From NCBI GenBank assembly GCA_039621445.1, contig CP154954.1, positions 7,203,425 through 7,267,424 on the forward strand: a stretch of 64,000 nt of DNA. Reading direction: 5' to 3'. Source of the stretch: Euglena gracilis (Eukaryota). The translations under genes and the position numbers were made by a program. Under the pieces are notes generated by a model. The model was not told the origin of the DNA and did no database searches. It saw nothing but the letters and a program-made list of their open reading frames with translations. Below, piece after piece: positions 21,001 to 61,754 of the stretch (position 1 is its first letter; each line of letters begins with the position of its first letter).

Positions 21001-24000
21001 TTAAGATGCCAGCAATCGATTTTAAGGGATCCCATATCGAATAAAAGTTCAATTTAGGGGGTAGGAACCCAAAGGGAAGGACTTTGAACCAAGGGCAATG
21101 AAAGGGACTCACAGAACCAGGTAAGGTTCCGTTTTCCCTGGGCGGCAGAAGGGGGTTCCCACTTGAATATTCCCGGATGTAGAAGGATCTAGGACCCAAA
21201 AAATGTCTCAAGGGGTACATTAAGATGCCAGCAATCGATTTTAAGGGATCCCATATCGAATAAAAGTTCAATTTAGGGGGTAGGAACCCAAAGGGAAGGA
21301 CTTTGAACCAAGGGCAATGAAAGGGACTCACAGAACCAGGTAAGGTTCCGTTTTCCCTGGGCGGCAGAAGGGGGTTCCCACTTGAATATTCCCGGATGTA
21401 GAAGGATCTAGGACCCAAAAAATGTCTCAAGGGGTACATTAAGATGCCAGCAATCGATTTTAAGGGATCCCATATCGAATAAAAGTTCAATTTAGGGGGT
21501 AGGAACCCAAAGGGAAGGACTTTGAACCAAGGGCAATGAAAGGGACTCACAGAACCAGGTAAGGTTCCGTTTTCCCTGGGCGGCAGAAGGGGGTTCCCAC
21601 TTGAATATTCCCGGATGTAGAAGGATCTAGGACCCAAAAAATGTCTCAAGGGGTACATTAAGATGCCAGCAATCGATTTTAAGGGATCCCATATCGAATA
21701 AAAGTTCAATTTAGGGGGTAGGAACCCAAAGGGAAGGACTTTGAACCAAGGGCAATGAAAGGGACTCACAGAACCAGGTAAGGTTCCGTTTTCCCTGGGC
21801 GGCAGAAGGGGGTTCCCACTTGAATATTCCCGGATGTAGAAGGATCTAGGACCCAAAAAATGTCTCAAGGGGTACATTAAGATGCCAGCAATCGATTTTA
21901 AGGGATCCCATATCGAATAAAAGTTCAATTTAGGGGGTAGGAACCCAAAGGGAAGGACTTTGAACCAAGGGCAATGAAAGGGACTCACAGAACCAGGTAA
22001 GGTTCCGTTTTCCCTGGGCGGCAGAAGGGGGTTCCCACTTGAATATTCCCGGATGTAGAGGGACCTAGGACCCAAAAAATGTCTCAAGGGGTACATTAAG
22101 ATGCCAGCAATCGATTTTAAGGGATCCCATATCGAATAAAAGTTCAATTTAGGGGGTAGGAACCCAAAGGGAAGGACTTTGAACCAAGGGCAATGAAAGG
22201 GACTCACAGAACCAGGTAAGGTTCCGTTTTCCCTGGGCGGCAGAAGGGGGTTCCCACTTGAATATTCCCGGATGTAGAAGGATCTAGGACCCAAAAAATG
22301 TCTCAAGGGGTACATTAAGATGCCAGCAATCGATTTTAAGGGATCCCATATCGAATAAAAGTTCAATTTAGGGGGTAGGAACCCAAAGGGAAGGACTTTG
22401 AACCAAGGGCAATGAAAGGGACTCACAGAACCAGGTAAGGTTCCGTTTTCCCTGGGCGGCAGAAGGGGGTTCCCACTTGAATATTCCCGGATGTAGAAGG
22501 ATCTAGGACCCAAAAAATGTCTCAAGGGGTACATTAAGATGCCAGCAATCGATTTTAAGGGATCCCATATCGAATAAAAGTTCAATTTAGGGGGTAGGAA
22601 CCCAAAGGGAAGGACTTTGAACCAAGGGCAATGAAAGGGACTCACAGAACCAGGTAAGGTTCCGTTTTCCCTGGGCGGCAGAAGGGGGTTCCCACTTGAA
22701 TATTCCCGGATGTAGAAGGATCTAGGACCCAAAAAATGTCTCAAGGGGTACATTAAGATGCCAGCAATCGATTTTAAGGGATCCCATATCGAATAAAAGT
22801 TCAATTTAGGGGGTAGGAACCCAAAGGGAAGGACTTTGAACCAAGGGCAATGAAAGGGACTCACAGAACCAGGTAAGGTTCCGTTTTCCCTGGGCGGCAG
22901 AAGGGGGTTCCCACTTGAATATTCCCGGATGTAGAAGGATCTAGGACCCAAAAAATGTCTCAAGGGGTACATTAAGATGCCAGCAATCGATTTTAAGGGA
23001 TCCCATATCGAATAAAAGTTCAATTTAGGGGGTAGGAACCCAAAGGGAAGGACTTTGAACCAAGGGCAATGAAAGGGACTCACAGAACCAGGTAAGGTTC
23101 CGTTTTCCCTGGGCGGCAGAAGGGGGTTCCCACTTGAATATTCCCGGATGTAGAAGGATCTAGGACCCAAAAAATGTCTCAAGGGGTACATTAAGATGCC
23201 AGCAATCGATTTTAAGGGATCCCATATCGAATAAAAGTTCAATTTAGGGGGTAGGAACCCAAAGGGAAGGACTTTGAACCAAGGGCAATGAAAGGGACTC
23301 ACAGAACCAGGTAAGGTTCCGTTTTCCCTGGGCGGCAGAAGGGGGTTCCCACTTGAATATTCCCGGATGTAGAAGGATCTAGGACCCAAAAAATGTCTCA
23401 AGGGGTACATTAAGATGCCAGCAATCGATTTTAAGGGATCCCATATCGAATAAAAGTTCAATTTAGGGGGTAGGAACCCAAAGGGAAGGACTTTGAACCA
23501 AGGGCAATGAAAGGGACTCACAGAACCAGGTAAGGTTCCGTTTTCCCTGGGCGGCAGAAGGGGGTTCCCACTTGAATATTCCCGGATGTAGAAGGATCTA
23601 GGACCCAAAAAATGTCTCAAGGGGTACATTAAGATGCCAGCAATCGATTTTAAGGGATCCCATATCGAATAAAAGTTCAATTTAGGGGGTAGGAACCCAA
23701 AGGGAAGGACTTTGAACCAAGGGCAATGAAAGGGACTCACAGAACCAGGTAAGGTTCCGTTTTCCCTGGGCGGCAGAAGGGGGTTCCCACTTGAATATTC
23801 CCGGATGTAGAAGGATCTAGGACCCAAAAAATGTCTCAAGGGGTACATTAAGATGCCAGCAATCGATTTTAAGGGATCCCATATCGAATAAAAGTTCAAT
23901 TTAGGGGGTAGGAACCCAAAGGGAAGGACTTTGAACCAAGGGCAATGAAAGGGACTCACAGAACCAGGTAAGGTTCCGTTTTCCCTGGGCGGCAGAAGGG

Positions 24001-58900: not shown

Positions 58901-61754
58901 CACTAACAAAAGGGATCCAATGGCGGGAATATGTCTGAACCTTATGTGCCAGGAAACACTGTTTTTGGCACCCAGCCAGCCCAGCCGGTACCCATGGTCC
59001 CGGGCACCTAAGACGGCCTTTTTGAGCGTAAGAGTTGCCTAAAAATCGATTCTCGCACCCTTTAGGAGTTGTTTGAGCCCTTCAGGGGTCACTAGATCCT
59101 ACGTGATCTCAAAATATCACTAACAAAAGGGATCCAATGGCGGGAATATGTCTGAACCTTATGTGCCAGGAAACACTGTTTTTGGCACCCAGCCAGCCCA
59201 GCCGGTACCCATGGTCCCGGGCACCTAAGACGGCCTTTTGAAGCGTAAGAGTTGCCTAAAAATCGATTCTCGCACCCTTTAGGAGTTGTTTGAGCCCTTC
59301 AGGGGTCACTAGATCCTACGTGATCTCAAAATATCACTAACAAAAGGGATCCAATGGCGGGAATATGTCTGAACCTTATGTGCCAGGAAACACTGTTTTT
59401 GGCACCCAGCCAGCCCAGCCGGTACCCATGGTCCCGGGCACCTAAGACGGCCTTTTTGAGCGTAAGAGTTGCCTAAAAATCGATTCTCGCACCCTTTAGG
59501 AGTTGTTTGAGCCCTTCAGGGGTCACTAGATCCTACGTGATCTCAAAATATCACTAACAAAAGGGATCCAATGGCGGGAATATGTCTGAACCTTATGTGC
59601 CAGGAAACACTGTTTTTGGCACCCAGCCAGCCCAGCCGGTACCCATGGTCCCGGGCACCTAAGACGGCCTTTTTGAGCGTAAGAGTTGCCTAAAAATCGA
59701 TTCTCGCACCCTTTAGGAGTTGTTTGAGCCCTTCAGGGGTCACTAGATCCTACGTGATCTCAAAATATCACTAACAAAAGGGATCCAATGGCGGGAATAT
59801 GTCTGAACCTTATGTGCCAGGAAACACTGTTTTTGGCACCCAGCCAGCCCAGCCGGTACCCATGGTCCCGGGCACCTAAGACGGCCTTTTTGAGCGTAAG
59901 AGTTGCCTAAAAATCGATTCTCGCACCCTTTAGGAGTTGTTTGAGCCCTTCAGGGGTCACTAGATCCTACGTGATCTCAAAATATCACTAACAAAAGGGA
60001 TCCAATGGCGGGAATATGTCTGAACCTTATGTGCCAGGAAACACTGTTTTTGGCACCCAGCCAGCCCAGCCGGTACCCATGGTCCCGGGCACCTAAGACG
60101 GCCTTTTTGAGCGTAAGAGTTGCCTAAAAATCGATTCTCGCACCCTTTAGGAGTTGTTTGAGCCCTTCAGGGGTCACTAGATCCTACGTGATCTCAAAAT
60201 ATCACTAACAAAAGGGATCCAATGGCGGGAATATGTCTGAACCTTATGTGCCAGGAAACACTGTTTTTGGCACCCAGCCAGCCCAGCCGGTACCCATGGT
60301 CCCGGGCACCTAAGACGGCCTTTTTGAGCGTAAGAGTTGCCTAAAAATCGATTCTCGCACCCTTTAGGAGTTGTTTGAGCCCTTCAGGGGTCACTAGATC
60401 CTACGTGATCTCAAAATATCACTAACAAAAGGGATCCAATGGCGGGAATATGTCTGAACCTTATGTGCCAGGAAACACTGTTTTTGGCACCCAGCCAGCC
60501 CAGCCGGTACCCATGGTCCCGGGCACCTAAGACGGCCTTTTTGAGCGTAAGAGTTGCCTAAAAATCGATTCTCGCACCCTTTAGGAGTTGTTTGAGCCCT
60601 TCAGGGGTCACTAGATCCTACGTGATCTCAAAATATCACTAACAAAAGGGATCCAATGGCGGGAATATGTCTGAACCTTATGTGCCAGGAAACACTGTTT
60701 TTGGCACCCAGCCAGCCCAGCCGGTACCCATGGTCCCGGGCACCTAAGACGGCCTTTTTGAGCGTAAGAGTTGCCTAAAAATCGATTCTCGCACCCTTTA
60801 GGAGTTGTTTGAGCCCTTCAGGGGTCACTAGATCCTACGTGATCTCAAAATATCACTAACAAAAGGGATCCAATGGCGGGAATATGTCTGAACCTTATGT
60901 GCCAGGAAACACTGTTTTTGGCACCCAGCCAGCCCAGCCGGTACCCATGGTCCCGGGCACCTAAGACGGCCTTTTTGAGCGTAAGAGTTGCCTAAAAATC
61001 GATTCTCGCACCCTTTAGGAGTTGTTTGAGCCCTTCAGGGGTCACTAGATCCTACGTGATCTCAAAATATCACTAACAAAAGGGATCCAATGGCGGGAAT
61101 ATGTCTGAACCTTATGTGCCAGGAAACACTGTTTTTGGCACCCAGCCAGCCCAGCCGGTACCCATGGTCCCGGGCACCTAAGACGGCCTTTTTGAGCGTA
61201 AGAGTTGCCTAAAAATCGATTCTCGCACCCTTTAGGAGTTGTTTGAGCCCTTCAGGGGTCACTAGATCCTACGTGATCTCAAAATATCACTAACAAAAGG
61301 GATCCAATGGCGGGAATATGTCTGAACCTTATGTGCCAGGAAACACTGTTTTTGGCACCCAGCCAGCCCAGCCGGTACCCATGGTCCCGGGCACCTAAGA
61401 CGGCCTTTTTGAGCGTAAGAGTTGCCTAAAAATCGATTCTCGCACCCTTTAGGAGTTGTTTGAGCCCTTCAGGGGTCACTAGATCCTACGTGATCTCAAA
61501 ATATCACTAACAAAAGGGATCCAATGGCGGGAATATGTCTGAACCTTATGTGCCAGGAAACACTGTTTTTGGCACCCAGCCAGCCCAGCCGGTACCCATG
61601 GTCCCGGGCACCTAAGACGGCCTTTTTGAGCGTAAGAGTTGCCTAAAAATCGATTCTCGCACCCTTTAGGAGTTGTTTGAGCCCTTCAGGGGTCACTAGA
61701 TCCTACGTGATCTCAAAATATCACTAACAAAAGGGATCCAATGGCGGGAATATG
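43930..61754 (+). repeat. Satellite B: 217-bp tandem repeat, ~82 copies, highly homogeneous
   Basis: cactaacaaa recurs at 43931, 44148, 44365, etc. One GGATCC and one ATCGAT per monomer. Confidence 0.99.

Follow-up and report, generated by a model that had tools for sequence, protein, structure and literature searches.

The locus examined here, on contig CP154954.1 of the Euglena gracilis assembly GCA_039621445.1, raises the question of whether two satellite arrays of nearly equal monomer length, both set among telomere-type repeats, belong to a single family and, if so, which part of the monomer has been kept between them. The window, that is, the whole stretch of DNA analysed, comprises 64,000 nucleotides of the forward strand (positions 7,203,425 to 7,267,424 of the contig), and coordinates below are those of the window. 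Satellite A (21001–32519, plus strand) consists of 52.5 copies of a 219 bp monomer and satellite B (43930–61860, plus strand; repeat detection 43930–61760) of 82 copies of a 217 bp monomer, with 99 % matches in each array. With a probability that we put at roughly 0.75, a single satellite family of a euglenid host, its monomer measuring about 217–219 bp, is represented here by two locally homogenised subfamilies, A and B.

When the reverse complement of the A monomer was set against B without gaps from AAAATCGATT onwards, 44 of 80 positions were identical (76 of 217 over the full length), with identical runs of 10, 5, 9, 3 and 5 bases at positions 1, 32, 51, 65 and 72. The example copy of this shared 80 bp segment in A lies at 21163–21242 and is read on the minus strand from AAAATCGATT. 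In B it lies at 44289–44368 on the plus strand, as defined by the ungapped match and the shuffle test, and its blocks are AAAATCGATT (44289–44298), TTGAG (44320–44324) and CTAGATCCT (44339–44347). A preliminary description of the locus, in which the two satellites were called cryptic homologues with conserved and helically phased blocks, had counted the same 44/80 by hand and had placed further matching blocks at 114 versus 113, 185 versus 183 and 196 versus 194 of the two monomers; both results were reproduced, and its eight example coordinates in A and B proved exact.

The similarity was compared with that of dinucleotide-preserving shuffles of the monomers. The best ungapped window of 80 bp, over all rotations and both strands, held 47 matches against 36.6±1.65 in the shuffles (maximum 43; reached by 0/200), and local alignment with +1/−1 scoring gave 20 against 10.3±1.5 (maximum 17; 0/200). 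Under +3/−2 scoring, which is tuned to approximately 56 % identity, local alignment reached 186 against 70.8±17 (maximum 144; 0/1000 shuffles; Gumbel p ~1e-4), the same-strand score being an unremarkable 90. Circular global alignment of the reverse complement of A with B scored 100 against 24.9±11.6 (maximum 62; 0/200), and 126 of 232 columns were identical; the best same-strand score, 38, lay within the null range. A blastn comparison (+1/−1) of A and B aligned 124 nt at 61 % identity on opposite strands (E 7e-5).

Not every comparison was as clear. Identity is only 55 % over the 80 bp and low over the ungapped full length, a local alignment score of 25 under +2/−3 (18.6±2.4, maximum 29) was reached by eight of 200 shuffles, and the full-length ungapped count of 80 (74.7±3.2, maximum 86) was reached by 15 of 200. 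These figures are what chance or a shared base composition might produce, yet such an origin of the similarity is very improbable: the four other tests were exceeded by none of 200–1000 dinucleotide shuffles, the blastn E value is low, and the 10-mer and the 9-mer shared by A and B lie on one diagonal, 50 bp apart. The homology of A and B is real and in inverted orientation. The monomers differ in length by 2 bp, block order is common to both, and divergence has left about 55–62 % identity; the segment AAAATCGATT-N21-TTGAG-N14-CTAGATCCT is the best-conserved part between them.

Within each array the picture is one of near-uniformity. After the arrays had been cut into monomers at an anchor word, the commonest copy accounted for 33 of 52 A monomers and 68 of 82 B monomers, in agreement with the earlier claim that both arrays are almost invariant internally. 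The other copies carried a few substitutions or indels of 1–4 bp, which in A were clustered at monomer positions 138–197. Long head-to-tail arrays with high internal identity, the hallmark of satellite DNA, were thus found for both A and B. On the left both arrays begin sharply; on the right both edges are degenerate, next to penultimate copies that equal the consensus. A ends in a partial copy, cut off near monomer position 114, in which 110 of 120 columns are identical, and B in a copy (61721–61860, plus strand; 97 of 149 columns identical) that passes gradually into CCCTAA-like repeats. The degenerate right edges can be read as parts of the arrays that homogenisation does not reach, as is generally understood for satellites, and read in this way they speak for real junctions. 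Each array would have been amplified and kept uniform by mechanisms general to tandem repeats (unequal exchange, gene conversion or break-induced copying), and the two arrays have diverged from each other.

Public sequencing runs were searched with four B monomers as queries, and the results of this search accordingly concern B. Twenty rows from 15 studies held all or part of the B stretch, and in 19 the share was at least half of its words. Fourteen DNA-type rows, all from one organism, held 93–96 % of the sampled words, and several RNA-type libraries also held B, including two leaf-litter metatranscriptomes. Four runs were aligned to a B dimer (window 44147–44580) at a likeness of at least 80 %. 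The DNA run X1 yielded 2921 B-like contigs, of which 1359 showed at least 99 % likeness, 1300 were at 95–99 %, 225 at 90–95 % and 37 below 90 %. Their summed word depth was ~5–7e5 in a run of 1505 million letters, which by our own arithmetic is ~9 % of the run at face value; summed depth is not copy number, so that this share is good to an order of magnitude only. To that order of magnitude it sits well with the tandem-repeat share of the published E. gracilis assembly, given as 9.85 % in the text of PMC11252322.

In this one DNA run, then, B is present in a very abundant, graded variant population across the genome, and the many graded copies expected of a satellite genome-wide were found for it. 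Since B is abundant and varied in public DNA, it is not specific to this locus. The suggestion of a chromosome-specific satellite therefore fails for B, given the 2921 varied contigs of X1 and the spread of B over the runs of 15 studies. At B position 169 the commonest letter genome-wide is C and the letter of the array is G, with C carried by a few array copies.

Two of the libraries, X18 and X19, are leaf-litter metatranscriptomes that hold the B monomer at ~99 % identity (two differences, in one 247-nt contig of X18) together with more distant relatives of the 217 bp type, which suggests that the leaf-litter samples contain a euglenid or its DNA. Libraries X18, X19 and X20 are recorded as RNA; for X15–X17 this type is a guess. 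The presence of B in RNA libraries is not read as a sign of transcription, because DNA traces of so abundant a repeat would look alike.

The distant relatives of B (at least 80 % fit) bear on which part of the monomer has been kept. They match only B positions 114–152 or 133–168; each of these two stretches includes AAAATCGATT, and beyond them the sequence differs. The first corresponds to 44477–44515 on the plus strand, a B core that ends in AAAATCGATT and is delimited by the distant relatives. A 247-nt contig of X18 fits B only there, with three differences and with ~88 and ~120 unlike letters on either side, and a second X18 contig fits only 44496–44531 (B positions 133–168). In X1 the boundaries of the 114–152 fit coincide with the best-supported loose ends (three and seven contigs), and loose ends that run past B position 152 keep TTGAG at the distance that it has in B. 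Relatives were judged from these best-supported loose ends, in addition to which there are 93 more. By these alignments the AAAATCGATT region is common to A, B and at least two further subfamilies, and it appears to be the part that the family has kept best. The proposal of a conserved core finds its strongest support in this retention by A, B and the distant relatives.

Several observations weigh against a single family with selected blocks. Strong similarity between A and B is limited to about 80–120 bp, and over the remaining 137–139 bp it is marginal: outside the first 80 bp the alignment score was 19 against −26±15, a value reached by six of 2000 shuffles, and an inverted-orientation control, in which the same A piece was aligned with the reverse complement of the B piece, scored 25. 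Just two full family members were compared, and the third and fourth relatives are known only from fits of 36–39 nt and loose ends of 30 nt. Variants within the arrays hit the blocks, in A as 184A>G, 188T>C and an insertion at 185 and in B as 146A>T and, in two copies, 147T>G. On few events, variants in blocks are about as frequent as the share of positions that lie in blocks predicts.

The confinement of the strong similarity to ~80–124 nt, with a remainder that is marginal and equalled by the inverted control, is also what would be seen if A and B were otherwise unrelated and each had acquired a piece of ~80–120 bp from a common source, such as a mobile element fragment or another repeat. 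The 9-mer GGATCCCTT, which is shared in the other orientation and at a different place, fits this reading too. The inverted control was helped by GGATCC(CTT), a palindrome-based 9-mer that is differently placed in A and B. An origin of this kind is nevertheless unlikely. Two unrelated monomers would hardly be expected to differ by only 2 bp in length or to give a circular global alignment above all 200 shuffles, and no copy of A, of B or of the shared piece was found in the 19.5-kb left flank of the window. Moreover, GAACCTTA is shared at 114 versus 113 (offset −1), far beyond the 80 bp segment. Its presence near the same place is a fair sign of shared order, the chance of an 8-mer within ±3 of the diagonal over ~137 positions being ~0.015 (an estimate); the 5-mers CCTAA (185 versus 183) and CTTTT (196 versus 194) are uninformative. 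Homology of the whole monomers, of which only the core is proven, is likely because of their equal length, shared order and circular global alignment. The description of A and B as cryptic homologues thus holds for their opposite orientation, their near-equal length and 80–120 bp of strong similarity, the rest of the monomer being marginal; similarity above shuffles in one order, as expected within one family, was found to the same extent.

Selection on the blocks, also proposed in the preliminary description, was not borne out. Besides the array variants, six common genome-wide variants of B (positions 59, 95, 114, 135, 157 and 169) were considered, and none of the six fell in a block, an outcome with a chance of ~0.2 (an estimate). 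Of the conserved blocks there stands the retention of AAAATCGATT in distant B relatives; a depletion of variants inside the blocks was not seen. The segment AAAATCGATT-N21-TTGAG-N14-CTAGATCCT may tentatively be put forward as a candidate site at which a chromatin or telomere-associated protein binds, because it is best conserved between A and B and its first block is retained by distant relatives of B; such a role is possible rather than probable. A search of metagenome contigs for this pattern, with a spacing tolerance of ±1, gave no matches. A relaxed B-type pattern gave 15 single matches in metagenome contigs, none of which resembled A or B beyond the pattern, and these were dismissed as chance.

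The arrangement of the matches within the shared segment was analysed separately. The 44 matches in 80 positions are clumped beyond random (permutation p 0.004–0.005), which fits either uneven constraint or uneven mutation. For eight hand-picked block starts, Rayleigh R was 0.80–0.82 at 10.25–10.3 bp, with p ~0.009 when periods of 10.0–10.6 bp were allowed and 0.06–0.09 across 7–14 bp. Objectively defined runs of at least three matches gave p 0.10, and the four runs of at least five matches gave p 0.015 within 10.0–10.6 bp and 0.10 across 7–14 bp. No periodicity was found in the match vector, whose top power at 10.3 bp had p 0.22 and whose best period within 7–14 bp had p 0.95. WW dinucleotides showed weak peaks, for A at 10.4 bp with p 0.10 and for B at 10.8 bp with p 0.03. 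Helical phasing of the blocks, as claimed earlier, is suggestive at most and is not established, since it is seen only with hand-picked blocks; the objective runs and the match vector do not carry it.

Other identities for the monomers were considered. The 247-nt contigs (217+30) close on themselves in three runs, as they would if the monomers were small, independently replicating circles with conserved blocks, like kinetoplast minicircles. This is the least probable of the explanations considered: a length of 247 nt is read as the collapsed assembly of a tandem repeat, assuming that Logan contigs are built from the same 31-letter words as the index used in the run search, and A and B are repeated head to tail in long arrays that adjoin telomere-type tracts. 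An RNA family, a fold and a conserved reading frame were looked for in the monomers and not found. Nothing pointed to circles, and the earlier proposal of small replicating units is not supported.

A tandem array of small-RNA genes of the small nucleolar RNA type was rejected on two grounds. Box C has the form RTGATGA and box D the form CTGA; no box C within one mismatch was found on either strand of A or B, and no Rfam family matched either monomer. Folding of the strands was no better than that of shuffles (z +1.1 for A, −0.4 for B), and palindromic hexamers were not enriched in A or B. As for coding capacity, one minus-strand frame of the six is open through the 219 bp of A, which has a chance of ~0.17 (an estimate), and B is closed in all frames. 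On the minus strand of 21001–27132 the first 28 identical copies of A form one long open frame of 73-residue repeats, 219 being divisible by 3. A search of Pfam with the A frame returned only a row below threshold. As no Pfam family scored above threshold and the homologous B is closed, this long frame is probably open by chance. Internal sub-repeats, inverted self-similarity and telomere-derived composition were not found in A (AGGG p 0.08). In B, 77/217 positions matched directly after a shift of 20 bp (p 0.007), and there were two occurrences of CCTAA (p 0.04), values that are uncorrected for ~20 tests.

Across the right two thirds of the window, telomere-type tracts and the two satellites form a mosaic. 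Tract T1, ~1.45 kb of (TTAGGG)n on the plus strand (19548–21000; repeat detection to 21001), has 243 copies with 97 % matches, and its 228 perfect units make up 94 % of its length. It is followed by A and then by T2, 11.4 kb of (TTAGGG)n on the plus strand (32520–43929; repeat detection 32532–43927), with 1826 perfect units (96 %) and a longest perfect run of 300 units. Beyond B lies T3 (61861–64000; repeat detection from 61864), which reads (CCCTAA)n on the plus strand and so has its G-rich units on the minus strand; it holds 315 perfect units (88 %) and continues past the end of the window. A variant unit, TTCGGG, recurs in T1, T2 and T3 (three, four and three times), and the other interruptions of the telomere tracts are mostly single-base indels that could be read errors.

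The four satellite–telomere junctions in the assembled sequence are all direct and of the TTAGGG type. T3 is inverted relative to T1 and T2, and the outer tracts point inward, with TTAGGG on the left and CCCTAA on the right. The arrays A and B, which are oppositely oriented by homology, each abut TTAGGG-type tracts; when they are oriented by that homology, a G-strand TTAGGG tract precedes each array (T1 before A on the plus strand, T3 before the reverse complement of B on the minus strand). Around the 11.4-kb T2 the two halves of the locus thus make up a loose inverted pair.

TTAGGG is the telomere type of Euglena, as stated in PMC3622300, and its telomeres are put at ~20 kb in the text of PMC9498494, so that T2 has the size of a real telomere. 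The mosaic of telomere repeats and satellites would most likely have arisen from repeated breakage, healing and recombination at chromosome ends, and the inverted T3 from an end-to-end join or from an assembly join. An outward-facing telomere with inverted telomere repeats behind it is the signature of an end-to-end join, biological or assembly-made, and the head-to-head layout seen here, in a window free of N letters, is what such a chromosome join or an assembly join at contig level would produce.

It is a serious possibility, if not the expected one, that the telomere-embedded layout is partly a product of assembly, chromosome ends or interstitial sites having been chained via their repeats; the order, the lengths and the inversion would then be doubtful, and the homology of A and B would be unaffected. 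The assembly described in PMC11252322 had reads of mean length 8.5 kb, a contig N50 of 619 kb and scaffolding by optical map and Hi-C, according to the text of that paper. The near-identical arrays, of 11.4–17.8 kb, are longer than the mean read, and at 19548 unique sequence changes abruptly to perfect TTAGGG repeats, as at a true chromosome end. If the window derives from this assembly, which was made from long noisy reads, arrays of 11–18 kb could not have been spanned by its reads, a further point against the reading of A and B as homogenised subfamilies: with reads too short for the arrays, their lengths, their order and some of their uniformity may be owed to assembly or polishing. On the other side, the window contains no N letters, each of the four junctions has a specific sequence, the two degenerate edge copies look old rather than stitched, and TTCGGG recurs in all three tracts.

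The 19.5 kb to the left of the mosaic is rich in repeats and includes a segmental duplication of ~6 kb, MAPEG-matching fragments and a piece of a retrotransposon integrase. One copy of the ~6-kb duplication carries, at 6881–7208, a G-rich degenerate telomere-like tract of ~330 bp (G runs with TTAG or TAG) that is missing from the other copy, 6752–6880 and 7209–7487 pairing with 12816–12944 and 12937–13215. The open frames 5034–5711 and 9399–10556, which lie in duplicated segments, have the same short MAPEG match (E ~9e-6) and probably represent pieces of exons from a gene that was duplicated. A (TATATG)n-type microsatellite of ~600 bp (2629–3256) is the source of most of the spurious microRNA matches to Rfam; all such matches in the flank were far below gathering scores, and all lay outside A and B.

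The chromosome architecture of euglenids is almost undescribed. No published nuclear satellite, centromere or subtelomere of Euglena was found in the literature searched, a scope that took in neither most subscription journals nor the supplements of the assembly paper, where tandem repeats may be listed. Elsewhere, satellites that lie beside telomere repeats and have split into diverged subfamilies with one conserved box are a familiar phenomenon. An abundant satellite with a defined core would supply probes for fluorescence in situ hybridization (FISH) and karyotyping, and the family would help to check the assembly of chromosome ends. The core could further serve as DNA bait for telomere- or heterochromatin-binding proteins in a group whose kinetoplastid relatives have very unusual chromosome biology.

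Among known systems, the closest euglenozoan analogue is the conserved telomere-associated sequence (LCTAS) of Leishmania. It too is a euglenozoan repeat beside TTAGGG tracts, in which short kept blocks, the conserved sequence blocks (CSBs) CSB1 and CSB2, lie in polymorphic sequence and have been proposed as binding sites or segregation elements, as set out in the text of PMC8621916. The LCTAS unit, however, is ~100 bp long and its blocks are conserved between species, whereas the monomers here are 217–219 bp long, form arrays of 11–18 kb and come from one genome; the two are likened by description only.

The tobacco HRS60 (184 bp) and Silene X43.1 satellites likewise have roughly nucleosome-sized tandem monomers joined directly to telomere repeats, and the text of PMC9498494 that describes them also presents the 'library' view, in which variant families of a satellite expand and contract locally. 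They belong to another lineage, and no sequence relation is expected; they differ from the present locus in that telomere-type tracts here flank each array, one of them inverted.

In Trypanosoma brucei, a euglenozoan satellite of similar unit size, the 177-bp repeat, makes up the core of minichromosomes, where it stands in two oppositely oriented arrays. At the Euglena locus, by contrast, the outer telomere tracts face inward, contrary to those of a free linear chromosome, and the arrays are only ~55–62 % alike. The modified base J marks the 50-, 70- and 177-bp repeats of T. brucei, and in Euglena it lies mostly outside telomere repeats, as reported in the text of PMC1874636. With most of the Euglena J being non-telomeric, an abundant satellite is a plausible carrier, and that this satellite carries base J is offered as speculation.

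A stronger proposal would make the conserved segment the box bound by a sequence-specific chromatin protein on the major Euglena satellite, one that amounts to a genome share on the order of several percent, serves as a mark of chromosome ends or of centromeres and may also bear the non-telomeric base J; the box would then be the euglenid counterpart of the Leishmania CSB or of the CENP-B box. This proposal is rather unlikely as a whole. Alpha satellite with its CENP-B box combines a short box, diverged subfamilies, a fixed monomer length and local homogenisation. A and B resemble such CENP-B-box satellites in having a short conserved box in diverged, locally homogenised subfamilies, and differ from them in their location beside telomere-type tracts and in being known from their sequence alone. 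Set beside these systems, A and B are ordinary satellite DNA with one well-kept core.

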